A stretch of DNA of 14,198 nt from an uncultured Verrucomicrobiae bacterium (lineage in GTDB: Bacteria > Verrucomicrobiota > Verrucomicrobiia > Limisphaerales > J093): positions 1 to 14,198 of the forward strand of contig CALJWR010000130.1 of the NCBI GenBank assembly GCA_937976685.1. Reading direction: 5' to 3'. The notes under the pieces are model-generated. The model worked only from the letters and a program-made list of their open reading frames with translations, had not been told where the DNA came from and made no database searches. Within the stretch, counting starts at the first letter, position 1. Every line of letters starts with the position of its first letter. The translations under genes and the position numbers were made by a program. This document shows, in pieces, positions 461 through 14,198 of the stretch.

Positions 461-1327
461 TCACTCGCGCGATGCGATCCGTTCGCACGACCAGAAGTTG
501 TACAATGCGCACATGACGGTGAGACCGAGCCACCGCCATGGCCCGCCCCAGTTGAATGGTGAATCGCCAAGCAACGCCAGCGCCAGAACTAAGTCAATCA
601 CCGTGTACGCCAGGATCAGAACGAACCCCACCCAGTTGGCCCGCCACCTTATCGCCCAACTGGTCGCGAAGGACGTCACCCACGGCAGCACGAGCGAGGA
701 AATCAGCCAGATTGCCACCCGCCACCGCAACGGCACTGCCGCTACCGAACGCCGTGCCCGCACTATCCAGGATGGACGCCACTCCATCCGGATCGTATCG
801 CGAAACACGAACATGCCGCGGTGCGTATCATACGCGAGCAGATGCATCGCAGTGCGAAGTGTCCCGTTCGTCGTCTCAGGCGTCAGCGCCCGTCCAGCGA
901 TCACGACGTCGAGATCCACACGGCGGCCGGCGTGCAGCACCTCGTCCAGACTCGTCGCCGCGGCGAGAGCTCGGGATACATCGGACAGAAACCTCTGAAA
1001 CACCGACCGCTCCTCGACGTGCCAACCCGGAGTCGCGGCCAGCGACGCTTTCAGAATCGCGGTGATTTCGTCCCGGGGATCGTTGGCGAGGTGGGCCACA
1101 CCGATCCGGCTCCCGGGCGGCACATGCTGCGCTAGCCGCCGCGCGGCTTCCGTTGCCGTTGCTCGCCAAGCCTCGAGCTCGTCCGGTGTCGGCCTTCTCG
1201 GACGCGGACGCAGGAAGACAATCGCTTGCCAGACGAAGAATGCCAAAACGCATGACGCGAACAAACGCCAACTCCACCACCATCTCAGCCACCGCCACAT
1301 GGCTTCACCCCCTGACTCTGTTCGCAT
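461..1327 (-). CDS. Membrane protein with N-terminal TM helix, central CsgG/LpoB/TolB-N-like domain and C-terminal TM helices. Hypothetical.
   Basis: ATG at 1327 (alternative ATG at 1300 preceded by GGGGGTG; the track's 1402 start is TTG). N-terminus MWRWLRWWWSWRLFASCVLAFFVW is a hydrophobic TM. The central 'RIGVAHLANDPRDEITAILKASL...VDLDVVIAGRAL...GTLRTAMHLLAYDT' matches the alternating-hydrophobic pattern seen in the two downstream paralogs. The C-terminal ~90 aa is hydrophobic and Trp-rich. The antisense + ORF 306-998 is low-complexity and was rejected. Confidence 0.65.
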   Translation of the reverse strand: MRTESGGEAMWRWLRWWWSWRLFASCVLAFFVWQAIVFLRPRPRRPTPDELEAWRATATEAARRLAQHVPPGSRIGVAHLANDPRDEITAILKASLAATPGWHVEERSVFQRFLSDVSRALAAATSLDEVLHAGRRVDLDVVIAGRALTPETTNGTLRTAMHLLAYDTHRGMFVFRDTIRMEWRPSWIVRARRSVAAVPLRWRVAIWLISSLVLPWVTSFATSWAIRWRANWVGFVLILAYTVIDLVLALALLGDSPFNWGGPWRWLGLTVMCALYNFWSCERIASRE

Positions 1328-1359
1328 CCTACTATGCCTCTCCGAGCACCACAATACCA

Positions 1360-1400
1360 CAAACAACTTGACATAACCAAAGCAAATCTCATAGAAATAC
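1360..1400 (+). promoter_or_regulatory. Candidate sigma70-type promoter for the ESCRT-III/Vps4 operon.
   Basis: Perfect -35 TTGACA at 1368-1373, an 18-nt spacer, then TAGAAA (4/6) at 1392-1397. It sits in an AT-rich island (1340-1405) within an otherwise GC-rich sequence. A strong SD AAAGGAG lies 8 nt before the ATG at 1482. An 8-bp direct repeat GGCCGCTG (1410-1417 and 1434-1441) lies between the promoter and the SD. Confidence 0.4.
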
Positions 1401-1481
1401 AAATCAAGCGGCCGCTGGATGTCGCTTTCGGTTGGCCGCTGTCGGCCTTCAAGCTAAAATGCCATCGAAAGGAGCCATGCC

Positions 1482-2108
1482 ATGGGCCACCTCTTCAAAT
1501 CTCGGAAGGAGCGGGAACGCGAGGCGCGGCGGGAGGAACGTCGGGCGTTTCGCCAGGCGGAGAATGCCAGTGAGGACGTGAAGGACCGAATGCGGGAGAT
1601 GGAGCGCGACGCCCGCACACAGTGGGCGCAGGCACGCGAGGCCTTGAAGGCGGGCCAGAATGCGGAGGCTCAGAGGCTGCTCATTGGGTACCGAGCTCGC
1701 CTCGTTCTGATCACAAAGCTGAAGCAAAAGGTATGGGTTTTCGAGCAGTACCTTGCCAAGCTCCGTGCGGCGAAGTCCGACCAGCAATTCTCCGCCGCGT
1801 TGGGGGCGATCAACAAGGTGATGCGTATCGATCCGGATCAAGTGGCCGACGTCTTCGAAGAGGCCGAGGATCTGGTCGGCGAACAGATCGACACGGACCG
1901 GTTTTGGCAGAAACTCCACGAGAAGGAGGTTCAGGGCGCGGCGGCATCCCTGGAGGACCGGATTCCTACGGTCGAAGAGCTCAGTGTCCAGCTCCAACAG
2001 GAGGCGGCGGCGGAGGTCGGCGGCTCGGCGGCAGTGACTGGAGATCTGATTTCGGCGCGCGTGGCCGCCGGTCGCGATCGGGTGAAGAAACTGTTGGACG
2101 GAAAATGA
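1482..2108 (+). CDS. ESCRT-III (Snf7/CHMP/Vps2-24 family) protein.
   Basis: SD AAAGGAG upstream and high GC3. The 208 aa length is typical of ESCRT-III. The N-terminus MGHLFKSRKE parallels CHMP2A MDLLFGRRKT (basic helix alpha0/1). 'ALKAGQNAEAQRLLIGYRARLVLITKLKQ' parallels CHMP2A 'MAKQGQMDAVRIMAKDLVRTRRYVRKF'. 'ALGAINKVMRIDPDQVADVFEEAEDLVGEQIDTD' parallels the alpha4/5 'AMKGVTKAMG...IQKIMMEFERQAEIMDMKEE' region. The C-terminus is acidic, followed by 'DLISARVAAGRDRVKKLL', which resembles a MIM1 (DxxLxxRLxxLK/R). The stop TGA at 2106-2108 abuts the next gene. Confidence 0.75.
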   Translation: MGHLFKSRKEREREARREERRAFRQAENASEDVKDRMREMERDARTQWAQAREALKAGQNAEAQRLLIGYRARLVLITKLKQKVWVFEQYLAKLRAAKSDQQFSAALGAINKVMRIDPDQVADVFEEAEDLVGEQIDTDRFWQKLHEKEVQGAAASLEDRIPTVEELSVQLQQEAAAEVGGSAAVTGDLISARVAAGRDRVKKLLDGK

Positions 2109-3245
2109 TTGGACGCGTGGCGAAACATGAATTTCCTACTGGAGAAAAAACAGGAACACGAGAGAGCGTGTGAGCTCGCCATCCAGGGAAACCGCAGCAC
2201 GGAAGCGGTGTTTCACGCGGCCAAAGCTGCCGAGTTCGCGTTCGCGCTGGCGGAGCGCGCCGCCGATGGGATCGCGCAGCGGTATATCGAGGATGCGGAA
2301 GGCTGGCTAGAGATCGCCGAGCGTCTCCGCGCCGCTCCGTTGCCGCGTCTAGGCTCTTCTCCCAGCCGTGCCGCTCGACGGACCTCCGATGAGGCCGACG
2401 TGCTCGCCGCCGACGATTGGCTCGTCGCCTCTCGGCCCTCTGTCTCGTTCGACCAAATCGCCGGCATGGCAGACGCGAAGCAGGCCATTTTCGAGATGGT
2501 CGTGTATCCTCTCCGGGAGCCCGAGGCGGCGCGTTCCCTCGGCCTCAAGCCCGGTGGCGGTCTGCTTCTATATGGTCCACCGGGAAATGGCAAGACAATG
2601 CTGGGCAAGGCGGTCGCCCATGAATTGGACGCACCGTTTTACTATGCCTCGGGCGCCCAGATCCGATCCAAGTGGCATGGGGAATCCGAGCAAAAGCTTC
2701 GATTATTCCTCCGCACCGCAAAAGAACAGCCTGTCGCCGTCGTGTTTCTCGACGAAGTGGACGGTCTTCTGCCCCGGCGTGGCGGCAGTTCTGTCGTGGA
2801 CAACCGCATCGTGACCCAGTTTCTTGCCGAGATCGGTGGTTTTGAGGAGTCGGACAACGTGCTGCTCATCCTCGGCGCAACGAACAAGCCGTGGGAAATC
2901 GACGAAGCCGTGTTCCGCACCGGCCGGTTCGACCAGAAAATTTATGTCGGCCTGCCCGACGCCGAGGCCCGCCGCGGCATTCTCCAGATGCACTTGCAGG
3001 GCACGGCGGTTGAACCCGGGTTTTCCATCAACGACTGGGTGGACCGCTTCGACGGCTATGCTGGCAGTGACATCGTGGCCATCGTCAACGGCGCCAAACG
3101 CCGAGCCCTGGCGAGAACTGCAAGGGATCGGACCCCGCCCATCCTGTGCTCGGCGGACATCGAGGCGGCCATGGCAACGATGCCACGGTCAGTGACGCCG
3201 CGGATGTTGAAGGAATACGAGAACTTCGCGCGTCAGAGGTTTTGA
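2109..3245 (+). CDS. Vps4-like meiotic-clade AAA+ ATPase with an N-terminal MIT-like 3-helix domain and a Vps4 C-terminal helix.
   Basis: Walker A is GPPGNGKT and Walker B is VVFLDEVD. Pore loop 1 'SKWHGESE' matches the KW(M)GESE signature of Vps4/katanin/spastin. Arginine fingers sit in 'AVFRTGRFDQ'. The C-terminus 'MPRSVTPRMLKEYENFARQRF' parallels Vps4 'RPTVNEDDLLKQEQFTRDFG' (Vps4_C). The N-terminal ~75 aa 'NFLLEKKQEHERACELAIQGNRSTEAVFHAAKAAEFAFALAERA..IAQRYIEDAEGWLEIAERLR' is helical and MIT-like. The start is either TTG at 2109 (directly after TGA, with GGACGGA upstream) or ATG at 2127. Confidence 0.9.
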   Translation: MDAWRNMNFLLEKKQEHERACELAIQGNRSTEAVFHAAKAAEFAFALAERAADGIAQRYIEDAEGWLEIAERLRAAPLPRLGSSPSRAARRTSDEADVLAADDWLVASRPSVSFDQIAGMADAKQAIFEMVVYPLREPEAARSLGLKPGGGLLLYGPPGNGKTMLGKAVAHELDAPFYYASGAQIRSKWHGESEQKLRLFLRTAKEQPVAVVFLDEVDGLLPRRGGSSVVDNRIVTQFLAEIGGFEESDNVLLILGATNKPWEIDEAVFRTGRFDQKIYVGLPDAEARRGILQMHLQGTAVEPGFSINDWVDRFDGYAGSDIVAIVNGAKRRALARTARDRTPPILCSADIEAAMATMPRSVTPRMLKEYENFARQRF

Positions 3246-3246
3246 G

Positions 3247-4161
3247 ATGGAACGATGCTGTATCTGTGGCCGCGATCTGCCCAACCGGTACGCCGTGGCC
3301 GGTCGCTGCGAAGAATCGGGATGCTCCGCGCCTTTCTGTGCGCTACATTGGGACTGCGGCAACCACCGATGCCGAGCACACGGTTACCAGGAACACGATC
3401 GGCAGCCACCGACCAGGTCCGCTGCGGAGGAGGACGCGATGAGAACGCCGAACCCACCGAATCCCGACCCTGCCATCACGCCGCCCACACGGCCGCCGGA
3501 TCGCGCGAAGATCCAGGCAGCCATCCAAGAGGCGTTGACGCTGGCCCGCCGTTTGGGCACGGGCGCCGTCAGCCTCTATCGCCGGTTGCGCCACATCCGC
3601 ACGACCGAGGAGATGCTGCGCATGATCAAAGAGACCGCCTCGAAGAACGAGGCCCGCGCCGGCGAGTTGTCCGCTCGCCTGGAGAGTCTTTACAACCAAC
3701 TCATCGAGAAAAAGAAGGCCTGGGAAACCGCGCCACCCGCGCGCCGGCAGGTTCTCGAAGCGGAGTTAAAGACGTTGCTGGCCATGCACCAGGCGGCCGT
3801 GCGCGAACACGGGATCGTGCTGGAAAACCAGCGCGTGCTCGCACAGGTCCGCGGCCGCATTCTAGAAGCCGAGGCGTATGGCATGGCCGGCGTCACCGAG
3901 GCGGAGATCGACGAATGGGCCGACGTGATCGAGGCCAAAGCCGGCGACGCCGAAAACCGGCTCGACGCCCTTCGCGATCTCGAACAAGCGGGCCGACGAC
4001 GCGAGCGGGAATCGACCCACGAGGACTTTCTGAATCAGCTTTCGCAGTTCAGTGAACCGGCAGCGGCGCCCTCCTCGCCGGAAGCGACCGCGGACCGCCC
4101 GCCCCCGCTCGCTGATCCTCCAGCGGCCAATGGACTCGAGCCTCCACCGCAGGACGATTGA
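3247..4161 (+). CDS. Zinc-ribbon / Pro-rich linker / coiled-coil protein, a probable second Snf7/ESCRT-III-like paralog.
   Basis: ATG at 3247 lies 1 nt after the TGA of the AAA gene, indicating coupling. The N-terminus 'CCICGRDL...CEESGCSAPFCALHWDCGNHRCRAH' is a Cys-rich zinc ribbon, followed by a Pro-rich linker. 'ARAGELSARLESLYNQLIEKKK...LENQRVLAQVRGRILEAEAYGMAGVTEAEIDEWADVIEAKAGDAENRLDAL' parallels Snf7 '...LEQQRMALEQANTN..LKAMKQGAKAM...IDKVDDLMDDITEQQEIAQEISDAI'. The C-terminal tail is acidic and Pro-rich. The overlapping frame 3255-4055 is Arg-rich junk. Confidence 0.7.
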   Translation: MERCCICGRDLPNRYAVAGRCEESGCSAPFCALHWDCGNHRCRAHGYQEHDRQPPTRSAAEEDAMRTPNPPNPDPAITPPTRPPDRAKIQAAIQEALTLARRLGTGAVSLYRRLRHIRTTEEMLRMIKETASKNEARAGELSARLESLYNQLIEKKKAWETAPPARRQVLEAELKTLLAMHQAAVREHGIVLENQRVLAQVRGRILEAEAYGMAGVTEAEIDEWADVIEAKAGDAENRLDALRDLEQAGRRRERESTHEDFLNQLSQFSEPAAAPSSPEATADRPPPLADPPAANGLEPPPQDD

Positions 4162-4255: not shown

Positions 4256-4275
4256 CTAGCGCGGGGACGCGCTAG
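4256..4275. terminator. GC-rich hairpin between convergent operons; candidate bidirectional terminator.
   Basis: Perfect inverted repeat CTAGCGCG-GGGA-CGCGCTAG (8-bp stem, 4-nt loop). It lies 95 nt after the plus-operon stop (4161) and 9 nt after the minus-operon stop (4284). No U-tract follows on either strand, which is common in high-GC genomes. Confidence 0.4.
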
Positions 4276-4283
4276 GCGCCAGC

Positions 4284-5372
4284 TCAACGGGGACGCCGAG
4301 TCGCGGCGAGCAACATGCGCAACACGATCAGCGCAATCAACACTGCGAGCGCGTACAGTACATAGATCGGGTGGCCTTTGAGCCAGAGCCAGACCTTTTC
4401 TATCACCGTATGTGGCGCCGCGATGAAATGCTCCGCGCGGGCCTCCAGCGTGTCGCTCCACACAATGCCATCGAGCGTTTGAATCTCGATCTGCACCGCC
4501 ACGCGTGCCTCGTAATTGGTGCCAGTCAAATCCGACGCTCTTTGAATGCGGCGATACAGATCGCGCACGGCCCCCCGCAATACGCCATCGGCAACCTGCG
4601 GTTGATCGCGGAGAATCAGTCGCGCTTGGCCGAGCGTCTGAACGTCCTTGTCCACCAGCGCCGCCGGGCTGGCCCGGAACATGTCTTTGACCAGACCGGT
4701 CACATAACCGTCGGTGTCGCCCGCCAGCGGCACCAGCAGTACCTTGCGGACGGATTTAATCTTTTTGGACGCAGACAGCGACTCTGCGCCTTGGTCGCTC
4801 ACCTGCCGCAAGGCCGCCCGTAGCGTCGCATCGAGATTCACCAATCCCGTCAGTTCGGGAACCAGGTAGATGCGCTTCGCGAACGTGCCACCCCAGATGT
4901 GCTGCTTGGTTTCGATAGAACTGGCGTGAACCTCTAGTTCGACGAACACGCGCTCCCGGGTCACGCTCGCCTCCCTCAAAAAAGCGTAGAGGAGTAGCTT
5001 GGCTCCCTGCAGCCGGCCGAACTTAGCGAGCGTGGCGGGGTCCAGGATGTCGGCCTTGCGCTCGCTCCACTCGATCTCCGTCAGGATTTCTTCCCATAAG
5101 GGATCCGTCTTGCCCTCGACCACATTGAGGCCGACCGCGGAGCCGGCGTTCTTCAACAGATTTTCAACATACCGGCTGGCAGTGTCGCCGGGGACCGGCA
5201 GCACGGCGATCGGCGCCGCCTTTGGAATGGGCGCCCCGGCCATCGCGGCCTGCGCTTCGCCCACGGCTTGTTGGATCGCCTGTCGGACCTCGTCGGTGAA
5301 CTCGGCGGCGAACGCCGACGCCGCCCCCACGAGCCACGCCGCCACCATCCAACGCTGCATGCTTCGCTTCAT
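4284..5372 (-). CDS. Exported protein with two tandem CsgG/LpoB/TolB-N-like domains and a C-terminal TM anchor.
   Basis: SD AAAGGAG lies 9 nt upstream of the ATG at 5372. The signal peptide is MKRSMQRWMVAAWLVGAASAFA|AE. Repeat 1 is 'IAVLPVPGDTASRYVENLLKNAGSAVGLNVVE...AKLLLYAFL' and repeat 2 is 'VLLVPLAGDTDGYVTGLVKDMFRASPAALVDKD...'. This 'hhVLPh.G......h...L...L......hV' pattern is typical of the CsgG/LpoB/FlgO fold. The C-terminus 'IYVLYALAVLIALIVLRMLLAA' is a TM helix. Confidence 0.8.
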   Translation of the reverse strand: MKRSMQRWMVAAWLVGAASAFAAEFTDEVRQAIQQAVGEAQAAMAGAPIPKAAPIAVLPVPGDTASRYVENLLKNAGSAVGLNVVEGKTDPLWEEILTEIEWSERKADILDPATLAKFGRLQGAKLLLYAFLREASVTRERVFVELEVHASSIETKQHIWGGTFAKRIYLVPELTGLVNLDATLRAALRQVSDQGAESLSASKKIKSVRKVLLVPLAGDTDGYVTGLVKDMFRASPAALVDKDVQTLGQARLILRDQPQVADGVLRGAVRDLYRRIQRASDLTGTNYEARVAVQIEIQTLDGIVWSDTLEARAEHFIAAPHTVIEKVWLWLKGHPIYVLYALAVLIALIVLRMLLAATRRPR

Positions 5373-5402
5373 CGGAATGACTCCTTTTAATGGCCCGGTT
5401 CG

Positions 5403-6167
5403 TCACCGGGGCTCGATGCCCAATTCGCGATAGTTTGCCAGACGGTTCAGAATCCCCTCGGGCACATCCCGACGGATATAGAGAATCCGGAACACCAGTT
5501 CGCGGCTGCCAAGGTCCTGACGAACCAGTCTGCACCATTTGATGCCCGGGATTGTCGAGACAACTTCGATAAAGCGCTGGGCATAGCGTGCGGCGTCGCT
5601 GCCGGGGAACAGCCGCCACGGCCGGGATATCACGATGTCGGCCGCCGCGAAATCGCCTATGCCGGACGTCACCGTTCGGACCGTCCACTCCGCGGCGGCG
5701 GCGCCCATCTTGTCGCCCAGCGACTGCAAGGCTAGATCTTCTCCCAAACGGCGGTCACCGCGAGCGTTGATGACCTCGCGCCCCAGCACCTGCCCGTCAT
5801 GCGGACGCGTCACGAGGGCATTCGCCGTCCCCTCGAACACGAAATAATTCCCGCTGCGATCGAACAGCGTGTAGTTCACGGCCACGTTGACATCGACATC
5901 GGGATCCCGGCGGTTGAGAGCGAAGGCCTTCTCCGCCAGGCCGTCCTCGATGCGCAGCCGCACCCGCTCGGCGACCGGAGATTTGCCCGTCACGGCTACG
6001 GCGATGTTTAGGTGTGCCACCTCGCGCAGACTGGCCTTGACACCGCCGATCTCGTCGGTCGCGTCCGGCCTGCGCTCCCGACCGAATGTGGCGCAACCGC
6101 CGGCGAGCATCCCAGCCATGCCCGCGACGACCGCGCGTCCAATCATGCGTCGCATCACTTCGTTCAT
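5403..6167 (-). CDS. Lipoprotein with CsgG/LpoB-like domain.
   Basis: SD AAGGAG lies 6 nt upstream of the ATG at 6167. The signal peptide plus lipobox is MNEVMRRMIGRAVVAGMAGMLAGG|C. 'LNIAVAVTGKSPVAERVRLRIEDGLAEKAFALN...VNVAVNYTLFDRSGNYFVFEGTANALVTR' has the same fold signature as the neighbouring paralogs. A 30-nt gap separates it from the downstream gene. Confidence 0.8.
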   Translation of the reverse strand: MNEVMRRMIGRAVVAGMAGMLAGGCATFGRERRPDATDEIGGVKASLREVAHLNIAVAVTGKSPVAERVRLRIEDGLAEKAFALNRRDPDVDVNVAVNYTLFDRSGNYFVFEGTANALVTRPHDGQVLGREVINARGDRRLGEDLALQSLGDKMGAAAAEWTVRTVTSGIGDFAAADIVISRPWRLFPGSDAARYAQRFIEVVSTIPGIKWCRLVRQDLGSRELVFRILYIRRDVPEGILNRLANYRELGIEPR

Positions 6168-6199
6168 GGGTTCTCCTTCCAGCGGGACTGGCCCCGCCG

Positions 6200-7903
6200 C
6201 TACACTTCGATGAATTCCTCGTAATCCTTGATCTGTCGGAACGTCCAGACTTGCGCCGAACGACCCCCGCCCAACGGCACTTCGTCCCCGGGCTGAATCC
6301 AGCGCGGATCACCGACTCCCCGGATGGCAAACGCCGCGCCCTGCCTCCACGCGACGAGGGGCCGAGCCTCCGGCAACACGGCCGCCAACGAGCAACAGCG
6401 GTTAAGCAATACGTACGTTTCCTTCACTGAATCGCGGCGCCGGATCACTACACAGGCTGGCGCCCCGGGAGGACAACGGTTCTCCATCGGACACGCGCCC
6501 CCCCCTGTCGTCGGACACGCCAGCGGTGTGACATCCGCCATCCATCCGCGCGATCCGCGTTTGACGGCATCGCCCAGCCCGATCGCTGTCGCCGTATCCG
6601 CTGGGAGTTCGGCGCTCCCTCCCGGCGGGATTCGGTCGGTCCCGACAAACGTCCCAAACGCCGACGGCCGGTCGATTCCGCTCTTCGGGTCCGGGCCAAG
6701 ATCTCGCACCACGCAGTGCCGGCCGTGGATCTCAATCCGTGCATGGCGGCGGCTGATGGAATTGTTGATGGCCGCCAGCGCCGTCTCCCACGCGCGACGG
6801 TCCCCATGCCAGGCCGGAAATAGACGGGTCATCACGTCGCACGCCGACGAACGCCCCAGTTGCCAGGAAGTCCCCGAAAGGAGATGAATCCGCCACCCAC
6901 CCACCACGAGGGTCAGACGCTCACTCCGGGCCCCTGGCGGCGGCTGCCCAAGGGGGAGCCCGGAGGACTCCACGGCCGTGGCCTCGGACGGCATCGCCGG
7001 GAACAGTTCCAGACGGCTCCACGCGCTTGGGACATTCTCAATTCGCGACAACATCGCATTGAGCGAATCATCCGCCCGCGCGTCTCGTTTCAGTTGTTCG
7101 ATATGGCCGAGGGCATGGCTGAAATCGACAATGCTGCCCCGATCGGCCTCGATATGGATGACCGTGGCCGCCCGGTTCAGCGCTTCGCGGGCGTTCTGCT
7201 GCTGTGAATGGATCGTGATGGAGAACTGCGTTTCGAACCATCGTTCCTCGCCGTTCAAACGGTAGCCGATTCGAAGCGTGACCGCGGGGTTCCCGACGAA
7301 TCGGGGACAGTAGCTCAACGCATGCGGCCACACCATCCCCTTGCGGGCGATCACCCGGCAGAGATGGATCTGCTGCTGCGCATCCTTGCCATCGCCGACG
7401 TTCAAATGAAGTTGAAGATTTTCGATGCCGTCGCTGTGAAACTTGAACCTGAACTCGAAACGCAACACGACGCCTTCGATGAACAGACGGGCGCGATTGA
7501 ACTCAACCGTCAAATCCTTGCAGTAAACCGGCGTCGATGTCCATGTCGATGTCTCGTCCGGAGCGCGCGACCGTGAACAGGACGTCGATGGCGGCAGCAC
7601 GCCGTCCAGAACTGGCAACAGCCCCCCACCCGGCGCCATCGGGTCCGCCGCCGACTCGGTCGGGACCGCCCAACCACCTGTCCGGGCCGGCACGGCCGCG
7701 TTCGAGAGCGCGGCGAGATCTATCGCATTGTAGCCGCCGAGAGCCACGCCGTCGGACAGATCGGAAACCGGCAGAACGCAGTCCGGTCGTGGATCCGCCG
7801 CCATCCGTGCACCGCAGAGGTGGCAGAACCGCGGCGGCGCCCCGTCGTCCGTGCGCGGCACCGGAGCCTTACAGTTGGAGCATCTCGCCACAGACTCGCT
7901 CAT
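6200..7903 (-). CDS. Zinc-ribbon + FHA-domain protein with additional uncharacterised domains.
   Basis: The true start is ATG at 7903 (MSESVARCSNCKAPVP...FCHLCGARM, a CxxC...CxxC zinc ribbon). It forms an ATGA overlap with the upstream gene's stop. The track ORF from 8095 is an Ala/Gly/Arg-rich extension with no start signal. The FHA signature is 'WQLGRSSACDVMT...ISRRHARIEIHGRHCVVRDLG..SAFGTFVGTDRI...ATAIGLGDAV' (GR...SRxHA...DLgS.nGTfVn...GD). A beta-rich middle domain and a Cys-rich C-terminal domain are unassigned. Confidence 0.8.
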   Translation of the reverse strand: MSESVARCSNCKAPVPRTDDGAPPRFCHLCGARMAADPRPDCVLPVSDLSDGVALGGYNAIDLAALSNAAVPARTGGWAVPTESAADPMAPGGGLLPVLDGVLPPSTSCSRSRAPDETSTWTSTPVYCKDLTVEFNRARLFIEGVVLRFEFRFKFHSDGIENLQLHLNVGDGKDAQQQIHLCRVIARKGMVWPHALSYCPRFVGNPAVTLRIGYRLNGEERWFETQFSITIHSQQQNAREALNRAATVIHIEADRGSIVDFSHALGHIEQLKRDARADDSLNAMLSRIENVPSAWSRLELFPAMPSEATAVESSGLPLGQPPPGARSERLTLVVGGWRIHLLSGTSWQLGRSSACDVMTRLFPAWHGDRRAWETALAAINNSISRRHARIEIHGRHCVVRDLGPDPKSGIDRPSAFGTFVGTDRIPPGGSAELPADTATAIGLGDAVKRGSRGWMADVTPLACPTTGGGACPMENRCPPGAPACVVIRRRDSVKETYVLLNRCCSLAAVLPEARPLVAWRQGAAFAIRGVGDPRWIQPGDEVPLGGGRSAQVWTFRQIKDYEEFIEV

Positions 7904-9186
7904 TGCGCCGGCGCCTCCGGAATCGCGTATGCGAAGTGGTCGGGCGCAGCCCGCGCCATGGCCCGAGCGTCCCCGGCCACGGCGCCGCCGTCCGGCACGT
8001 GCGCCAGCTCCCCCGGCCGCCGGTTCACATTCAGCGAGGGCGTCTGCGTGATCACCTGCTCGAAGTCCGCCACGCTGTGCCGCTCGATGCCACATCTCGC
8101 GTGGAACGCAACGAACGGCGCGGCCGGCTCCAATGCCGTCCCCAACCTGCGCGCGATCGCCGAACAGACCGCATGCCCAACGATAGAGCGCGGCGGCTGG
8201 CCCCAGATATGCAAAAAAGCCTCTTCAATCTCCGGCTCCGCTTCCTCCCACACCGCCATTGCGACCTGGGCCGTGTCCGGCCCGGCCGACGAATCCACCA
8301 CCGCCTCCAACGCCTCGGCCGGGGATCTGGCGCCGCAAATAGGCCGGCGCGCGTCCGTGCGAACTGCCGCCGCCGTCAACGGCGGAGGCGAGGGCTTCGC
8401 CGCTGGCCCCAGCGACCGGGCCTCGCGTTCCATCCATATGGCCCAGCCTTCATTGGCAAATCTCGTCGAGTTGAACTCCGTATCCCATTTTTCCCTCAAG
8501 ATGACGCCGTCCGTCGATGTCACGCTCTGCCTCGGATGACGTGCGCGCCGGTACCGTTGCGTCTGTAGAGCCCCCGACTCGCGCCCCCGCGCCGTGGTCG
8601 CGCCCAAGAGCCCGTGGCCCCATTGTTCGTGAATCGCTGTGTCGGTCATCGCCAACAGCACGCGCCAATCCGCCACGTCGGCTCTCGCCGACTCCAACTT
8701 GAACACCTGCGCGAGCAGCCATTCGATCAGGAAACAGCCCCGGCCGTCCAGGAACACGCCCCAGACGCCGCCATCGCGCCCCGCCTCAGTGACTTTGATT
8801 TGCTCTTCCAGCCAGGCCCAAACCTGGGCCATGCTGACGTCTTTGTGCGACAACAACAGCCCGTCGAACTCCTCCGCCATTCCGTACAACATCACGGGGA
8901 ACGCCCATCCCAGCCCATACCGGTTCACCCCTACAGACGACGTAAGGACCCGTTCCACCACCGCGATCTGCGGCACACCCCGGACCTCCCCCATCGCGGG
9001 CAACGGACGGGCGCGATTGGCCGGAACGCCGGCGACGGCCTGCGCATCGGAACGGCCGCTCCTCACGGCGGCCCCGCCCCCGTACACCGCTGGGTGCAGC
9101 CGCCGCCCGCAGCCGGGACAGTCGAAAGCGCCCGCGCTCGCGTCGCGCCCCCACCCACCGCACGTCGCCCTCGATCGATGCGCCAA
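7900..9186 (-). CDS. Hypothetical protein (no recognisable domain), translationally coupled to the ZnR-FHA gene.
   Basis: The long ORF has protein-like composition. Its stop TGA overlaps the downstream ATG (ATGA at 7900-7903). The start is uncertain: TTG at 9186 (28 nt after the upstream stop, GGGGG upstream) or ATG at 8994 (MGEVRGVPQIAVVERVL...). The antisense frames are Arg/Pro-rich junk. Confidence 0.6.
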   Translation of the reverse strand: MAHRSRATCGGWGRDASAGAFDCPGCGRRLHPAVYGGGAAVRSGRSDAQAVAGVPANRARPLPAMGEVRGVPQIAVVERVLTSSVGVNRYGLGWAFPVMLYGMAEEFDGLLLSHKDVSMAQVWAWLEEQIKVTEAGRDGGVWGVFLDGRGCFLIEWLLAQVFKLESARADVADWRVLLAMTDTAIHEQWGHGLLGATTARGRESGALQTQRYRRARHPRQSVTSTDGVILREKWDTEFNSTRFANEGWAIWMEREARSLGPAAKPSPPPLTAAAVRTDARRPICGARSPAEALEAVVDSSAGPDTAQVAMAVWEEAEPEIEEAFLHIWGQPPRSIVGHAVCSAIARRLGTALEPAAPFVAFHARCGIERHSVADFEQVITQTPSLNVNRRPGELAHVPDGGAVAGDARAMARAAPDHFAYAIPEAPAQ

Positions 9187-9213
9187 GTTCGGCCCCCGTC
9201 CTTATCGCCCCTT

Positions 9214-10905
9214 TCAGCGGAAAATCTGCTGCGTGCTCCCGCCGTGCCCCGCCTTGCCGACCGCCTCCACGGCGGCTTTCAGAATGCGCTCGAGCCGTTC
9301 CATCATCGCGTCCCCTTCCTCGCGACGTTCGCGGTACAGGCGTTCGAAATCCTCGCGCTTCACTCGCCCCATGTCCGCCAGCGCCGCCGCGGCCGCCGGG
9401 GATTCCGCCGCCACTCCAGCCAGAAGCTGCTCCGGCGTCATCCCCGCCGCGCGCGCCTGCTGATCCAACCGCAGCAAATGCTCTCGCCGCGATGGGTCGG
9501 GAATGGCCGCGATGAGGGTTTGCAGGTCCATCCCCTGGAAAGCAGCGGCTCTCTGTGCCTCCGCCTCCAACTCAATCCGGGATTTTTCCGCCTTATACTT
9601 CAGGTGCGCCGACATCGTCTCGCTTTGCACGCGGAGCCACTTCAGCGACTCCTCCACCTCGGCGTCCACCGCAACCGCCTTAATCCGGGCCTGCGTTTCG
9701 GCGTCCTGAACCAGCTTGCCCCGAGTGTAGTCATCCCATTGGAGCTTAACGCCAATCTCGTGAGCGGCCGCCTCCATCTCCCTCGCCATCTGGTACGCCG
9801 CTTCCTCCCGCTCCAGTTCATGGCGATGAACCAGGCGCAGCCGTTCCATCTCGTGATTCCGGTGCGCCTCGGAAACGTCCCGCTCCTGCGCCAGTTGCCG
9901 CACGTACGCCTCGAGATCCGCCTCCGTCTTGAACTGCTGCATCTTGTCCGTCGCCAGCAGTTCCCTGAGCCGCTGGTCGAACTCGATCTCGCGCCGCCGA
10001 ACCTCCAGCGCCCCGACCTTTTCGCGAAGCTTCTCGTACTCCGCACCGGTGAAACACACCGCCGCCAGACGAATCAGTTCCAACCCATGCCGCTCCAGCG
10101 CCGTGGCCAACGTCGTGGCCATCGCGTTCTCCAAGTGCAGCCGCCGATCCGGGCTCTTAACCAGATCCTCGATCGTCGAGGCCGCGCACAAGCTTTCTGC
10201 CGCCAGACGGATCTCCCCGGTCATGGGCCCGGCAAGCTCCGCATAGGACAGACGATCGGCATTCTTGAACAGGTTCTCCACGAACGCCGCCGCGCGCCGC
10301 TCGGTGAATCGAAGCACCGCTTCGGTGTACAGCTCCAGCGGCAGCTCTTCGGCGCTGCGCAATCCTTCCAGCCGCAGCGGCAGCACCACGTCGCCGGCCT
10401 CAACTAGAATGAACTCCCTCGGTGGCGGAGCGCCCCACCAATTGATCTTGCGCGCCGTGTTGTCCGGCATGTGTCGCCCCGGCCCCAGCACCGTCTCCAC
10501 GCGGCCCCCTTCCAGCAGGATCGCCGCCTCGCCAGTGTGCACAATCAGCCCGCCAGTTAGGATTCGTTGGACGTCGCCCACGTGGAACCTCTGCGCGAAC
10601 ACGCCGGGCTTTCTCGCCCAGCCCTCCGCGTTGATGTCGTCCCGCGACTCAGGGTGCAGGCGCTGCTTGCAATTCCAGCAGAACCGCGATTCGTTTCCGA
10701 CCCACTTCCCGCAGTTGGGACACTTCCACCATCCGCCCGGCGCTGTGCTGCCACACCGACTGCAGTTCCGAGCCGCTTTGGGCACGCGGTTCCCGCACCG
10801 CGGCCAATGTGGATTTTTCCGGGCTTCTTCGAGCGCGGCACCCGTCAACGCCTCGCCTGTCTTGGGATCGATCAGCGCTTGGCAGCGATCGGCAAATAGA
10901 CCCAT
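9214..10905 (-). CDS. Double zinc-ribbon + SPFH/Band-7 (flotillin-like) protein with a long EA/ER-rich coiled coil.
   Basis: The start is ATG at 10905, with a perfect SD AAGGAGG 6 nt upstream; the track's 11013 start lacks any signal. The N-terminus has four CxxC pairs (CGNRVPKAARNCSRCG...WKCPNCGKW...FCWNCKQ). The SPFH core is 'FHVGDVQRILTGGLIVHTGEAAILLEGGRVETVLGPGRHM...ILVEAGDVVLPLRL...' (compare SPFH 'G...GPGLHF'). The C-terminal ~250 aa form a coiled coil with 'IELEAEAQRAAAF' EA repeats like the flotillin C-terminus. Confidence 0.85.
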   Translation of the reverse strand: MGLFADRCQALIDPKTGEALTGAALEEARKNPHWPRCGNRVPKAARNCSRCGSTAPGGWWKCPNCGKWVGNESRFCWNCKQRLHPESRDDINAEGWARKPGVFAQRFHVGDVQRILTGGLIVHTGEAAILLEGGRVETVLGPGRHMPDNTARKINWWGAPPPREFILVEAGDVVLPLRLEGLRSAEELPLELYTEAVLRFTERRAAAFVENLFKNADRLSYAELAGPMTGEIRLAAESLCAASTIEDLVKSPDRRLHLENAMATTLATALERHGLELIRLAAVCFTGAEYEKLREKVGALEVRRREIEFDQRLRELLATDKMQQFKTEADLEAYVRQLAQERDVSEAHRNHEMERLRLVHRHELEREEAAYQMAREMEAAAHEIGVKLQWDDYTRGKLVQDAETQARIKAVAVDAEVEESLKWLRVQSETMSAHLKYKAEKSRIELEAEAQRAAAFQGMDLQTLIAAIPDPSRREHLLRLDQQARAAGMTPEQLLAGVAAESPAAAAALADMGRVKREDFERLYRERREEGDAMMERLERILKAAVEAVGKAGHGGSTQQIFR

Positions 10906-10925
10906 GGCCGTCCTCCTTGCCGCCG

Positions 10926-11297
10926 TCAGCGGCGTTTCGTTTCCTCGTCCCGCGCCGCAGCCGCAGAAGCTTCGTGCTCCGCGCACCGCCGCACTTTCCG
11001 TCGCGTCCAACAATCGTCACAGAGGGGGGCGCCGCACTCGACACAATGCTGCCGGACCGAACCCCGGCTGCGATAGGCCGTGCCGCACGCCGCACACACC
11101 AGCCGCGCCGCGTCCGTCTTTGTTTTCTCCAGAAAACTCTCGAGATCTCGGCGCTGGATCCGATAAACCTTGCCCAGCCGCGCCGCCGGGAGCTCGCCCG
11201 AGCGAACCAGCTTGTAGATGAGCTGATAGTTCACTCCCATCAGCTCCGCCACATCCTCCAGCGACATGAATTCCTTTTCGATTCGCGTCATGGCCAT
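10926..11297 (-). CDS. Excisionase-family (MerR-superfamily) HTH DNA-binding protein with a C-terminal zinc ribbon; probable cluster regulator.
   Basis: ATG at 11297 (MAMTRIEKEFMSLEDVAELMGVNYQLIYKLVRSGELPAARLGKVYRIQRRDLESFLE matches the excisionase-family HTH signature 'L...E.A..LgV....vY.Lv..G.lPa.r.G...ri...dle'). The C-terminus 'CAACGTAY...HCVECGAPLCDDCW' is a C4 ribbon. It lies 20 nt upstream of the SPFH gene. The track's longer ORF begins with TTG at 11345, inside the promoter region. Confidence 0.8.
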   Translation of the reverse strand: MAMTRIEKEFMSLEDVAELMGVNYQLIYKLVRSGELPAARLGKVYRIQRRDLESFLEKTKTDAARLVCAACGTAYRSRGSVRQHCVECGAPLCDDCWTRRKVRRCAEHEASAAAARDEETKRR

Positions 11298-11411
11298 ACC
11301 GCTATCGTTTGTATACTGATTATCTCTGTTTGTGTCTCTTGTCAATTGGTAGTCGGAAATATTTTTTTCACCAGTTCTGCCTCATGCTTGCCGCACCAGA
11401 CAGCCCGGCCG
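11298..11411 (-). promoter_or_regulatory. AT-rich intergenic region; candidate promoter/operator for the HTH-SPFH-FHA operon.
   Basis: This is the most AT-rich stretch of the window (TTTGTATACTGATTATCTCTGTTTGTGTCTCTTGTCAATTGGTAGTCGGAAATATTTTTTT). On the minus strand it reads as a perfect -35 TTGACA (11345-11340), a 15-nt spacer and GATAAT (11324-11319). The short spacer makes the -10 assignment uncertain. No SD precedes ATG 11297, so the mRNA is near-leaderless. TCTCTGTTTGT / TCTCTTGT are imperfect direct repeats. Confidence 0.35.
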
Positions 11412-11687
11412 CTACTTCAGCAGCAGGTATAGCCCGACCATGTCCGCAAGAAGGAACACCATGTGGGCGATCCACTGATGGCGTTTCTTCAACGATGGCG
11501 ACACTGCACGACGTGCCGCGCCAAGAGCCGGGGGCTCCTCCCTGAATGGCACGCGAGCCCGGCCGTCTTCTTCAGGACGTTCCACCGTCGACCCAGAAGC
11601 CGACTCCGGAAAACGGATCGACGGCCCGATGCGAATCTCATCCGGACGGTGCCCAGGTCTTCCGATGCGTATTTCGGGGCTGTCCAT
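11412..11687 (-). CDS. Small (91 aa) tail-anchored membrane protein. Hypothetical.
   Basis: SD GGAGG lies 7 nt upstream of the ATG at 11687, 14 nt after the stop of the upstream 664-aa gene. The N-terminus is hydrophilic with a short internal repeat (EIRIGRPG / EIRIGPS). A single C-terminal TM follows (WIAHMVFLLADMVGLYLLLK). Small size limits confidence. Confidence 0.5.
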   Translation of the reverse strand: MDSPEIRIGRPGHRPDEIRIGPSIRFPESASGSTVERPEEDGRARVPFREEPPALGAARRAVSPSLKKRHQWIAHMVFLLADMVGLYLLLK

Positions 11688-13903: not shown

Positions 13904-14198
13904 TCAGCGAACCACAACCCGAAAACCGAGGCCGTAGTTCGAAGAGCCGGGATCGATGTCGTACCGGCACGCGGACCGGCAGTACCTGGCGTAGTTGTAC
14001 CAGCTAACGCCGCGCACCACGCGCGACCCAGCCGCAGAAGTGCCGCCCATCGGGTCGCGCTGCGCCTCTTTCGCGTACGTCCGCTTCCCATCCCAGCACC
14101 ACTCCCAGACATTTCCGTGCATGTCGTGCAAGCCCCAGGCGTTGGGACCGAAGGAACCCACTATGACGGTGGTTTCCCGGTACTGTCCTATCGCTCCA
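13904..14198 (-). CDS. C-terminal part of an FGE-sulfatase (SUMF1/EgtB/PvdO-family) domain protein, truncated by the window edge.
   Basis: '...GSFGPNAWGLHDMHGNVWEWCWD...GGTSAAGSRVVRGVSWYNYARYCRSACRYDIDPGSSNYGLGFRVVVR' matches the conserved C-terminal motifs of formylglycine-generating-enzyme-like domains (GLyDM.GNVWEW...RV.RGGSW......R.A.R.......LGFR). The frame stays open upstream to position 14198 (AIGQYRETTVIV precedes the track's GTG 'M'). The stop is at 13904. Confidence 0.75.
   Translation of the reverse strand, partial: GAIGQYRETTVIVGSFGPNAWGLHDMHGNVWEWCWDGKRTYAKEAQRDPMGGTSAAGSRVVRGVSWYNYARYCRSACRYDIDPGSSNYGLGFRVVVR

Follow-up and report, generated by a model that had tools for sequence, protein, structure and literature searches.

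Introduction

According to current reviews, the pairing of a Snf7-type ESCRT-III protein with a Vps4-like (MIT plus AAA) ATPase is absent from bacteria. In archaea, ESCRT variants are known that include FHA proteins, kinases and an SPFH-coiled-coil-zinc ribbon protein (PMC10936438), and the Halo_FHA and Meth_adaptin variants of the archaeal ESCRT-III/Vps4 (Cdv) systems offer the closest comparison for the locus described here (Makarova et al. 2024, PMC10936438). On the bacterial side, the ydjFGHL/I operon of B. subtilis combines PspA with a band-7-zinc ribbon protein and a double-zinc ribbon protein (Ravi et al. 2024, PMC11237479). VPS4-like AAA+ ATPases have furthermore been transferred from archaea to bacteria, as exemplified by ACB74714.1, and in these bacterial loci snf7 is reported to be displaced by a TPR + 6TM protein (Ravi et al. 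2024). As a Vps4-like ATPase in bacteria has thus already been noted, such an ATPase alone is not unprecedented. Two further systems share single elements with our locus, namely ArnA/ArnB with the ArnC/D kinases, which act in archaellum and DNA-damage regulation of Sulfolobus, and HflK/C with FtsH, where an SPFH scaffold is linked to a classical-clade AAA ATPase.

With these systems in mind, we analysed a stretch of 14,198 nucleotides (the window) from an uncultured Verrucomicrobiae bacterium, in which an array of minus-strand genes faces a plus-strand ESCRT-like operon.

Results

Gene layout and promoters

Positions 4284-11297 hold six tightly packed, co-directional minus-strand genes in the order g09-g08-g07-g06-g05-g04 (Table 1). 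The first-pass annotation had counted seven and had placed the FHA gene before the hypothetical one, whereas the actual order is SPFH - hypothetical (g07) - FHA. Its short gaps (20-32 nt) or overlaps agree with the measured spacings, which from g09 to g04 are 20, 27, -4 (an ATGA overlap), 32 and 30 nt. The strong Shine-Dalgarno sequences that it ascribed to all genes were found, as GGAGG-type sites, upstream of g08, g06, g05 and g04, and of g07 if this gene starts at TTG 9186, but not for g09 at ATG 11297 or 11291; the g09 start is ambiguous (11297, 11291 or 11267), and only 11267 has such a site. Public gene calls give the same starts for g08, g06, g01 and g02. The array does converge on the ESCRT-like operon, yet a terminator shared by the two is not borne out: the gap between them contains only a GC hairpin that lacks a T-tract, yields no terminator-like call and folds no better than shuffled sequences (z -0.03 and -0.88). 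Transmembrane segments are absent from all ESCRT, SPFH, FHA and HTH proteins, while g04 and g05 are extracytoplasmic. The membrane protein gene g00 occurs in 7/44 genome loci, in locus L054 and in 9/31 metagenome loci.

Table 1. Coordinates of genes and other features in the window
Feature	Position	Strand	Basis or remark
g00: 3-TM membrane protein, occasional cluster member	461..1327	-	TM segment call
Promoter region of the plus-strand ESCRT-like operon	1328..1481	+	49% GC
Plus-strand promoter words	CACAAACA 1358-1365; TTGACA 1368-1373; ATACAAA 1397-1403	+	
g01: Snf7-type ESCRT-III-like protein	1482..2108	+	Pfam Snf7 family matches
g02: predicted MIT domain and single classical AAA module, Vps4-like architecture	2127..3245	+	
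g03: binuclear zinc module (residues 1-50), disordered linker, three long helices	3247..4161	+	
8-bp GC hairpin in the 122-nt convergent gap	4256..4275	.	73% GC, without T-tract
g04: signal peptide, LpoB-like periplasmic domains, C-terminal TM anchor, short basic tail	4284..5372	-	Pfam LpoB
g05: lipoprotein, lipobox LAGG/C	5403..6167	-	G24 and C25 invariant
g06: C4 zinc ribbon, Pro-rich linker, beta-rich middle domain, FHA, C-terminal domain	6200..7903	-	Pfam FHA
g07: accessory cytoplasmic protein, invariant HE(K/Q)WGHG...EEGW motif	7900..9186	-	family alignment
g08: N-terminal double zinc ribbon, divergent SPFH/Band-7, long C-terminal helical region	9214..10905	-	Pfam
g09: HTH_17 (excisionase/MerR-type) and C-terminal eight-ligand (C7H) binuclear zinc module	10926..11297	-	Pfam HTH_17, TIGR01764
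AT-rich promoter region of the minus-strand array	11298..11420	-	46% GC vs 63% for the window
g09 promoter words	ATACAAA 11308-11314; CACAAACA 11327-11334; -35 TTGACA 11340-11345	-	
FGE-sulfatase domain fragment	13904..14161	-	PF03781, E 6e-19

The first gene of the array, g09, is presumed to encode its regulator; the protein matches Pfam HTH_17 with 53.2 bits, above the gathering cut-off, and also TIGR01764. Upstream of g09 the annotated AT-rich promoter region was recovered, and its TTGACA is kept in 29/37 orthologous regions (shuffle mean 1.9), mostly 42-56 nt 5' of the start and accompanied by an A-rich tract and TAAACAAA-type repeats. The promoter region of the plus-strand operon contains the window's only promoter-like call and a second promoter-like site at 1432-1460. 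Within the window, CACAAACA and ATACAAA, two words picked after both regions had been viewed, are each confined to the g09 and g01 promoter regions, where they lie in operon orientation.

Zinc modules, SPFH and FHA proteins

The view that one C4 zinc ribbon unifies all these proteins is only half right, because two unrelated zinc modules exist. Classical C4 ribbons occur in the SPFH and FHA proteins and in the g07 family, while g09 and g03 carry an eight-ligand binuclear module; in hhalign, the g09 module proves homologous to the N-terminal part of g03 (prob 95.9). Over 21-45 orthologs per family, the zinc ligands are invariant or nearly so, as seen for the eight Cys of g08 (45/45 orthologs), for C8, C11, C27 and C30 of g06 (37/37), for the seven Cys and one His of g09 (36/36) and for C4, C7 and C31 of g03 (21/21, with H34 in 20/21).

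In g08, Band_7 scores 35.5 bits (cut-off 23.6) and DZR 27.6 bits (cut-off 27.3), and more than 240 full-length homologs were found, all PVC-named. The SPFH domain is very divergent: at E <= 0.01 the family profile matched none of the solved structures. Its double zinc ribbon occupies the N-terminus, where SPFH relatives typically have a membrane anchor; at the threshold used, the protein shows no hydrophobic or transmembrane segment and thus lacks an anchor of the stomatin, HflK/C or flotillin type.

The FHA domain of g06 scores 29.0 bits in Pfam (cut-off 20.7), and the conserved G-R and S-x-x-H motifs (G350, the nearly invariant S384, and H387) place the protein among FHA proteins; the window copy has another residue in place of the Asn of the N-G motif, which most orthologs possess. 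Among solved structures, Sulfolobus ArnA is the best relative of the family (E 6e-8); it shares the arrangement of zinc ribbon, low-complexity linker and FHA domain as well as the association with Ser/Thr kinases. Unlike ArnA, however, g06 (567 aa) has additional middle and C-terminal domains, both conserved, the vWA partner ArnB is missing, and the context is SPFH/ESCRT and not the archaellum. The FGE-sulfatase fragment near the window's end is of the type fused to the Ser/Thr kinases that flank most orthologous loci. This kinase/FGE family is present in 35/49 loci with 71 copies, and all 10 metagenome loci whose flanks reach 6 kb or more have it; part of the adjacency could be background, since these genomes may be rich in FGE-sulfatase kinases.

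The ESCRT-like operon, g07 and proteolysis

Pfam Snf7 (PF03357) is matched by 16/16 members of the g01 family (best E 4.7e-7), while the window copy alone stays under the 27.3-bit gathering cut-off with 19.6 bits; none of the members matches PspA_IM30 at E <= 0.1. The best PDB profile match is the yeast Snf7 core (E 0.06). Conserved features are a hydrophobic/basic N-terminus (MGxLFxKSKKE) and, near the C-terminus, a D-x-IP-x-x-E-E-L motif followed by an amphipathic helix. Judged by these profiles, the g01 family belongs to the Snf7 branch and not to PspA.

In the window, as in most loci, g02 adjoins the Snf7-like gene. By structural modelling its N-domain is an MIT domain, with that of Sulfolobus CdvC as best match. 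The protein has one AAA module (Pfam AAA, 125 bits), for which membership of the Vps4/CdvC (meiotic) clade was considered and rejected, as it lies closer to Cdc48/p97-D2 and VAT. Its best PDB matches are VAT and Cdc48 D2; NCBIfam CdvC gives 197 bits against a cut-off of 650 and CDC48 199.5, and the profile of the lid and C-terminal helix gives 77 bits for p97 D2 and 50 for a katanin-like protein, with Vps4 outside the top 60. Vps4_C matches only at E 0.036.

The first-pass annotation had taken g03 for a zinc ribbon-Snf7 protein; by sequence it is not Snf7, and the Snf7-type protein of the operon is g01. Just 2/20 g03 members match Pfam Snf7 (E 0.025), and the alignment to the g01 family reaches an hhalign probability of 0.2. 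The three helices span residues 120-161, 164-210 and 218-266, and a conserved motif, AGRRRER...F..L..F, lies at the C-terminus. Foldseek returned nothing at E < 0.1, with PspA (4whe) at a probability of 0.98 and TMt 0.55. The modelled fold is at most compatible with that of ESCRT-III, and g03 may be an adaptor or a second ESCRT-III-like subunit.

The sequence of g07 makes it a putative gluzincin-type metallopeptidase. The family comprises 90 representative clusters. Residues H186, E187, G190, H191, G192, E203, E246, G247 and W251 are invariant; relatives match Zn_Ribbon_1/DZR at the N-terminus, where the window copy is degenerate (3 of 4 Cys), and in locus L049 the nearest homolog is likewise encoded between SPFH and FHA. 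A putative metalloprotease in this position, an HExxGH...EEGW motif kept invariant, and an AAA module closest to Cdc48-D2 and VAT unfoldases are what one would expect of membrane-protein quality control, in which an SPFH cage, as HflK/C around FtsH, organises an unfoldase and metalloproteases and the Snf7-like proteins serve as substrates or adaptors and do not cut membranes. An M48-like protein (c20) of other loci matches Peptidase_M48, and the array of L054 ends with a Trypsin_2 protease. The proteases, however, are accessory, g07 being absent from all 44 genome loci, from L047 and from all 80 metagenome loci; the ATPase carries no fused protease domain, always adjoins Snf7-like genes and has, with the predicted MIT domain, an ESCRT-III-binding module. 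We consider quality control unlikely. In itself, g08 differs from HflK/C in the lack of both a transmembrane anchor and a detectable sequence match to solved SPFH structures.

Envelope proteins

Of the two proteins annotated as envelope lipoproteins, g05 has the lipobox of one, and g04 is LpoB-like with a signal peptide and a C-terminal anchor (transmembrane segment at residues 338-356). In the g04 family, 8/10 members match Pfam LpoB (best E 1.5e-7), and g05, which shows only weak DUF4136 matches, is paralogous to part of g04, the two clustering in all-against-all BLAST across 25 loci.

Verrucomicrobia-group PVC lineages generally retain FtsZ. This argues against a device for cell division or envelope growth, in which ESCRT-III/AAA would drive late constriction or abscission, coupled to g04 and g05 as peptidoglycan or outer-membrane factors and timed by Ser/Thr phosphorylation. 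Such a role would be in line with the matches of g04 to Pfam's 'Peptidoglycan-synthase activator LpoB' and with the fact that the archaeal Cdv machinery for division has such a pair, Snf7 and an MIT-AAA ATPase, at its core (PMC10936438, PMC7615534). Yet the family occurs in only 44 of the scanned species genomes and is missing from many relatives, the periplasmic module is swapped for unrelated sets in other loci, and a search for a CdvA-like protein detected none. A role in division appears distinctly improbable.

Conserved linkage of the two modules

Species genomes were scanned by pattern for the SPFH side, which gave 44 species-level genome loci, all from MAGs or uncultured assemblies; an independent metagenome sample was surveyed starting from the Snf7-like gene. 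Adjacency to SPFH was seen for the HTH gene (34/42 loci) and for the FHA gene (30/37). Where at least 8 kb of downstream sequence is available, 20/26 SPFH loci hold at least one of the Snf7-like, Vps4-like and g03 genes and 12/26 hold all three; within 10 kb, 6/26 lack ESCRT-like genes. All 56 matches to these three families in this survey sit on the SPFH strand. From the Snf7 side, where each flank measures 6 kb or more, SPFH is present in 9/10 loci, the Vps4-like gene in 9/10 and a kinase in 10/10, and with flanks of at least 9 kb SPFH is found in 7/7. The cluster families are conserved over Kiritimatiellota/Lentisphaerota.

The two halves are separable modules. L052 holds a bare Snf7 and ATPase pair, L053 and L055 lack SPFH and FHA, and in L049/L050 the modules lie about 25-30 kb apart. 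Together with the separate promoters and convergent transcription in the window, this would suit unrelated SPFH/FHA signalling and Snf7/AAA operons that merely share a kinase-rich region. We regard such a coincidence as very improbable: co-occurrence within 10 kb holds from both sides (20/26 and 9/10), with a chance background that we infer to be far lower, and g09 and g03, which belong to different modules, share a zinc module. Furthermore, the linkage persists over three layouts, being co-directional in most loci, convergent in the window and divergent in L054, and therefore shared transcription alone does not explain it. The first-pass annotation had made its 'one integrated system' depend on conserved co-occurrence; the linkage, found in both directions and in all three layouts, supports it. 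Its statement that no named operon matches also stands, as full-text literature searching found no named counterpart and the closest reports concern different systems. As a whole, the annotated observation is partly confirmed.

The patchy distribution and variable accessory modules could also point to an anti-phage or conflict system, where kinase and FHA protein detect infection and the ESCRT-like and SPFH proteins modify the membrane or give it up, leading to exclusion or abortive infection. Mobile or defence-type genes are neighbours in some loci: L045 has a bAvd + reverse-transcriptase retroelement, L050 an integrase and L053 an inserted AbiEii. Against this, no system-specific model of PADLOC-DB 2.0 matched, and only weak, generic matches were obtained (IetA and TRIP13 for the AAA module, mad1 for the HTH), a nuclease or toxin effector is absent, and a search for relatives on viral contigs found none. 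The core is 34-64% identical across two phyla in stable synteny, which fits a housekeeping accessory better than a defence island with fast turnover. There is, in our view, little chance that defence is its function.

Discussion

Compared with archaeal ESCRT-III/Vps4, the locus shows the same adjacency of a Snf7-type gene and a gene for an MIT+AAA ATPase, and the N-domain of g02 resembles most closely the CdvC MIT domain in modelled structure. However, Cdc48-D2, and not Vps4 or CdvC, is the nearer relative of the AAA module, and CdvA, ESCRT-I/II, adaptin and ubiquitin components are absent. Beyond the archaeal systems, the cluster has an HTH-zinc regulator, the zinc-module coiled-coil protein g03 and periplasmic LpoB-like and lipoprotein partners. 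It also differs from the transferred VPS4-like ATPases as they are described, since its ATPase adjoins Snf7-like genes.

With ydjFGHL/I it shares the linkage of an ESCRT-III-superfamily polymer gene to a zinc-ribbon SPFH/band-7 protein and other ribbon proteins, and with Psp-type systems the proposed role in membrane stress or repair and the cell-surface lipoproteins, which are frequent neighbours there (PMC11237479). The polymer is nevertheless Snf7-type without a PspA_IM30 match, the ribbon is N-terminal to SPFH and not C-terminal as in ydjFGHL/I, and there is an MIT+AAA ATPase partner, which Psp systems lack. No protein of the window matches PspA_IM30, PspB/C, a sigma-54 activator or Toastrack; instead of PspB/C/F, TPM and Toastrack, the cluster has FHA and kinase signalling. 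The likeness to HflK/C-FtsH consists in the SPFH scaffold linked to a classical-clade AAA ATPase, with metalloproteases in some loci, and FtsH differs from g02 in having a fused protease and no MIT domain.

The domain content suggests a role in envelope remodelling or stress. We favour, with a probability of about 0.58, a phospho-regulated ESCRT-III/AAA system for membrane remodelling or repair, of which the minus-strand genes would form one half, responsible for sensing, adaptors and scaffolding. What was observed directly is the architecture, together with the homologies and the conservation of linkage; from these we infer the following steps. Kinases with FGE-sulfatase-type sensor domains would report an envelope or membrane signal, to which g04 and g05 may contribute, and g06 would read the resulting phospho-threonine mark. 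At the cytoplasmic face of the inner membrane, g08 may form a flotillin-like platform, with the ribbons at the N-termini of the SPFH, FHA and g07-type proteins as a common address tag. There, g01, perhaps nucleated or capped by g03, would form a polymer on the membrane that seals, buds or constricts it, and g02 would bind the ESCRT-III tails through its MIT domain while its ATPase disassembles or remodels the polymer. Finally, g09 may control both promoters and, because it shares its zinc module with g03, may be titrated by the partner of g03, analogous to PspA-PspF feedback.

More tentatively, and at somewhat less than even odds, the locus may represent a genuine bacterial counterpart of archaeal/eukaryotic ESCRT-III/Vps4, with a Snf7-type polymer and an MIT-AAA ATPase wired to a path from kinase to zinc ribbon-FHA protein, a flotillin-like scaffold and periplasmic partners. 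Its origin would then lie either in an ancient transfer from archaea or in an MIT domain joined independently to a Cdc48-type AAA module. If this is true, the cluster would make regulated membrane scission or repair of the ESCRT type accessible in a bacterial model.

Results

The public contig, 14,198 bp in its entirety and 63% GC, was modelled from open reading frames, start-codon contexts and codon-position GC (see the table). The first-pass annotation, which our analysis confirms in part, counted seven minus-strand genes in the interval 4284-11297; because the gene model places g09, g08, g07, g06, g05 and g04 there, the number is six, with spacings from g09 to g04 of 20, 27, -4, 32 and 30 nt. 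Public gene calls give identical starts for g01, g02, g06 and g08. For g07 the public call is ATG 8994, and since homologs align from residue 7, TTG 9186 is favoured. Neither an Rfam family nor a tRNA was found in the window. The cluster is closely preceded by g10, which has no Pfam or PADLOC match, and a 91-aa tail-anchored ORF; both are absent beside the cluster in relatives, save for a 41-residue patch in L049. The FGE-sulfatase sequence near the contig end is a short bounded ORF comprising the last ~85 residues alone, and may represent what is left of a kinase-FGE gene, a frameshift or an assembly-end artefact.

Features of the window and their coordinates
Feature	Position	Strand	Description
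g00	461-1327	-	flanking gene, 3-TM protein
g01	1482-2108	+	Snf7-type protein; converges on minus-strand array
g01 N-terminus	1482-1520	+	conserved MG(F/H)LF(F)KSKKEKE
g02	2127-3245	+	MIT-AAA ATPase; converges on minus-strand array
g03	3247-4161	+	zinc module and coiled coil; converges on minus-strand array
g03 zinc module	3247-3396	+	N-terminal
g04	4284-5372	-	signal peptide, LpoB-like domains, C-terminal TM anchor
g05	5403-6167	-	lipobox
g06	6200-7903	-	ZnR-FHA
g07	7900-9186	-	"hypothetical" of the first-pass annotation
g08	9214-10905	-	double ZnR-SPFH
g09	10926-11297	-	HTH regulator with zinc module
g09 zinc module	10926-11120	-	C-terminal
Tail-anchored ORF	11412-11687	-	91 aa
g10	11701-13695	-	flanking gene, 664 aa, N-terminal TM
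FGE-sulfatase fragment	13904-14161	-	flanking

The domains assigned at first reading score above curated Pfam thresholds (HTH_17, 53 bits; Band_7, 35.5; DZR, 27.6; FHA, 29). Judged by ligand conservation, the zinc sites are real: four Cys are invariant in 37/37 FHA orthologs, eight Cys in 45/45 SPFH orthologs, and seven Cys plus one His in 36/36 HTH orthologs, while orthologs of g03 keep C4, C7 and C31 in 21/21, H34 in 20/21 and a second site in 15/21. Not all of these sites are C4 ribbons; profile-profile comparison separates two classes. The FHA ribbon resembles the second SPFH ribbon (probability 95.3), and the C-terminal module of the regulator g09 resembles the N-terminal module of g03 over 45 columns in which the eight ligands all line up (probability 95.9); both values derive from comparing single pairs of Cys-rich profiles and may be optimistic. 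This binuclear module, of pattern C-x2-C-x13-C-x2/4-C-x4-C-x2-C/H-x7/8-C-x2-H, differs from the C4 ribbons found in the SPFH and FHA proteins. Since g09 and g03 share it, they may bind the same partner, or the regulator may be titrated.

The g06 family retains the FHA G-R and S-x-x-H motifs. Among solved structures it is best matched by Sulfolobus ArnA, which has a ZnR-linker-FHA architecture and belongs to a kinase-driven pathway. The window copy carries G-T in place of the N-G kept by most orthologs; its closest relative, L047, retains the Asn. We found no solved-structure relatives for the SPFH family, g07 or g04. Of the proposed "envelope lipoproteins", g05 does have a lipobox, whereas g04 is no lipoprotein; its LpoB-like domains were detected in 8/10 family members (best E 1.5e-7). 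Both proteins are extracytoplasmic, and no TM segments were found in the ESCRT-like, SPFH, FHA, HTH and g07 proteins.

The family of g07, for which no Pfam or PDB match was found, comprises 90 representative clusters, in which the motif HE(K/Q)WGHG...E...EEGW(A/S)TW (g07 residues 186-251) is invariant. Its closest members have an N-terminal zinc ribbon, of which the window copy retains 3/4 Cys. The family thus resembles a metallopeptidase of gluzincin type, as yet uncharacterised, that carries a zinc ribbon at its N-terminus. It is absent from 44 genome loci of relatives and from L047; GC3 backs it as coding. As its closest homolog, in L049, occupies the same SPFH/FHA slot as in the window, we regard g07 as a genuine accessory member, and on the size of the family and this shared slot we reject a spurious ORF or a lineage-specific insertion.

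On the plus strand, Pfam Snf7 is matched by 16/16 members of the g01 family (best E 4.7e-7) and PspA_IM30 by 0/16, and the best PDB profile match is the yeast Snf7 core; the window copy alone scores under the Snf7 cut-off. The conserved g01 N-terminus, which we take to resemble the MGNLFGRKKQ start of eukaryotic CHMP6/Vps20, could be a membrane-insertion motif. The ATPase g02 has a single classical AAA module (125 bits), preceded by 75 residues that are predicted to form a three-helix bundle (pLDDT 94.5) and are undetected by sequence profiles. This AAA module is nearer to Cdc48/p97-D2 and VAT than to Vps4 and fails the CdvC/Vps4 sequence test. Orthology to Vps4 is hence rejected on sequence, and we call g02 Vps4-like by architecture and context. 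The tightest neighbour of g01 is g03, adjacent in 28/31 loci, whose family of 67 members has no Pfam domain. In the predicted structure (pLDDT 81), a linker joins a zinc domain to three long helices. Foldseek, Pfam and hhalign searches with g03 were all negative, and an ESCRT-III fold is no more than compatible with the data. A role in SPFH-organised proteolysis or unfolding would be a minor contender, and a division device an unlikely one.

Whether the two halves belong together was judged from both sides. Every window protein was mapped onto the surroundings of SPFH-protein relatives in 44 species-level genome loci, whose record titles read Kiritimatiellae/-ia, Lentisphaerae, Victivallales, "Verrucomicrobiota" MAGs, or merely "bacterium", "uncultured bacterium" or "metagenome". 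The core order HTH, SPFH, FHA is near-universal, with HTH in 34/42 and FHA in 30/37 loci where the flank allows. A downstream flank of 8 kb or more was available in 26 loci; one or more of g01, g02 and g03 were present in 20 of these, and the full set in 12. The 56 such matches at SPFH loci all lie on the SPFH strand, so the convergent layout of the window is a rearranged form of an array that is otherwise co-directional. Reciprocally, scanning metagenome contigs with the g01 family gave 80 loci; where at least 6 kb was available on both sides (n=10), SPFH was found in 9, HTH in 8, the ATPase in 9, g03 in 9 and a kinase in 10, and with at least 9 kb (n=7) SPFH was found in all seven. In one locus, L054, the ten window families are all present but arranged divergently. 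The earlier reading of one integrated system is thus supported by linkage in 20/26 loci from the SPFH side and 9/10 from the Snf7 side, and mere co-location of two operons, unlike the other rivals, is largely excluded and very improbable.

Nevertheless, the two halves are separable modules. In L052 only Snf7 and the ATPase occur, surrounded by housekeeping genes; in L053 and L055 the ATPase comes with kinases, and neither SPFH nor FHA lies within 10 kb; and on one 2.7-Mb contig (L049/L050) the halves lie ~25-30 kb apart with kinases between them. The periplasmic module between FHA and the ESCRT-like genes takes three forms: g05 and g04 as in the window; a trio of lipoprotein, tail-anchored and outer-membrane-like proteins; or a set including a ZnR-repeat protein and an M48-like protease. 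Beside the ATPase of L050 (3978-5476), g03- and g01-like genes seem split into short called genes (126, 91, 103 and 123 aa), which may reflect decay or frameshifts. In L053, a region rich in small phage-like genes (SSB, NERD), an AbiEii-family gene (9195-10004) is inserted directly upstream of the Vps4-like gene and overlaps it.

Ser/Thr kinases fused to FGE-sulfatase domains flank 35/49 loci (71 copies) and 10/10 of the reciprocal sample; the fragment at the right end of the window comes from such an FGE-sulfatase domain. In L045 (2517-9107), a diversity-generating-retroelement pair (bAvd and RVT_1 reverse transcriptase) directly precedes the HTH-SPFH array and is flanked on either side by a Pkinase+FGE-sulfatase gene; these kinases may have sensor domains that are hypervariable targets.

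The promoter region upstream of the array is AT-rich, as first noted (46% GC). TTGACA occurs upstream of the HTH gene in 29/37 loci vs a shuffle mean of 1.9 and maximum of 7, mostly 42-56 nt before the start, with an A-rich tract before it and TAAACAAA-type repeats after. Two words, CACAAACA and ATACAAA, are each found at exactly two places in the window (expected 0.28 each), in the g09 promoter and the plus-strand operon promoter region, each copy oriented with its own operon; as the words were chosen after both regions had been seen, this sharing is only a lead. A shared intrinsic terminator is not supported: the convergent gap contains only a GC hairpin lacking a T-tract, and its folding does not exceed that of shuffled sequences.

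Discussion

The most economical model, which we infer as a whole, has seven steps. Kinases, perhaps with g04 and g05, would sense an envelope signal; the FHA protein would read the phospho-mark; the SPFH protein would supply a flotillin-like platform, with the N-terminal ribbons serving as a shared address tag; g01, with g03, would polymerise on the membrane; the MIT-AAA ATPase would recycle the polymer; and the HTH-Zn regulator, through the zinc module it shares with g03, would close a feedback loop akin to PspA-PspF. Anti-phage defence is an improbable alternative: PADLOC gave generic matches only for the window proteins, which speaks against a known defence system. No relatives were found on viral contigs, and a phage origin was rejected.

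The cluster is neither a Psp system nor a PADLOC-listed defence system. FHA proteins and kinases accompany archaeal ESCRT variants, as does an SPFH-coiled-coil-ZnR protein (Makarova et al. 2024, PMC10936438), and FHA, kinase and SPFH-ZnR partners recur here. In bacteria, transfer of VPS4-like ATPases with displacement of snf7 has been described, as has the linkage of PspA with band-7-ZnR and double-ZnR proteins in B. subtilis ydjFGHL (Ravi et al. 2024, PMC11237479). By analogy, the cluster would work like an ESCRT-III/Vps4 system with Psp-like accessories. We found no published description of it in the full-text literature searched, which leaves out most subscription papers, so a prior mention is possible.

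According to a 2025 review, a Vps4-like ATPase "appears absent in bacteria" (PMC7619361). A conserved bacterial Snf7 and MIT-AAA pair with archaeal-style partners would revise this view and surprise specialists. It would also bear on the origin of the ESCRT-III/AAA partnership, which may predate archaea, have been transferred or have evolved twice. Phylogeny and reconstitution can address this question directly, and the Cdc48-D2-like look of the AAA module makes a second origin a live possibility. Leads also arise on uncharacterised proteins, namely the g03 family, the g07 family with its protease-like motif and the binuclear zinc module of g09 and g03. PVC bacteria have an unusual membrane organisation, and the coupling of phosphorylation, flotillin-type scaffolds and ESCRT-III polymers could be studied in this cluster as a compact system with clear genetic limits.
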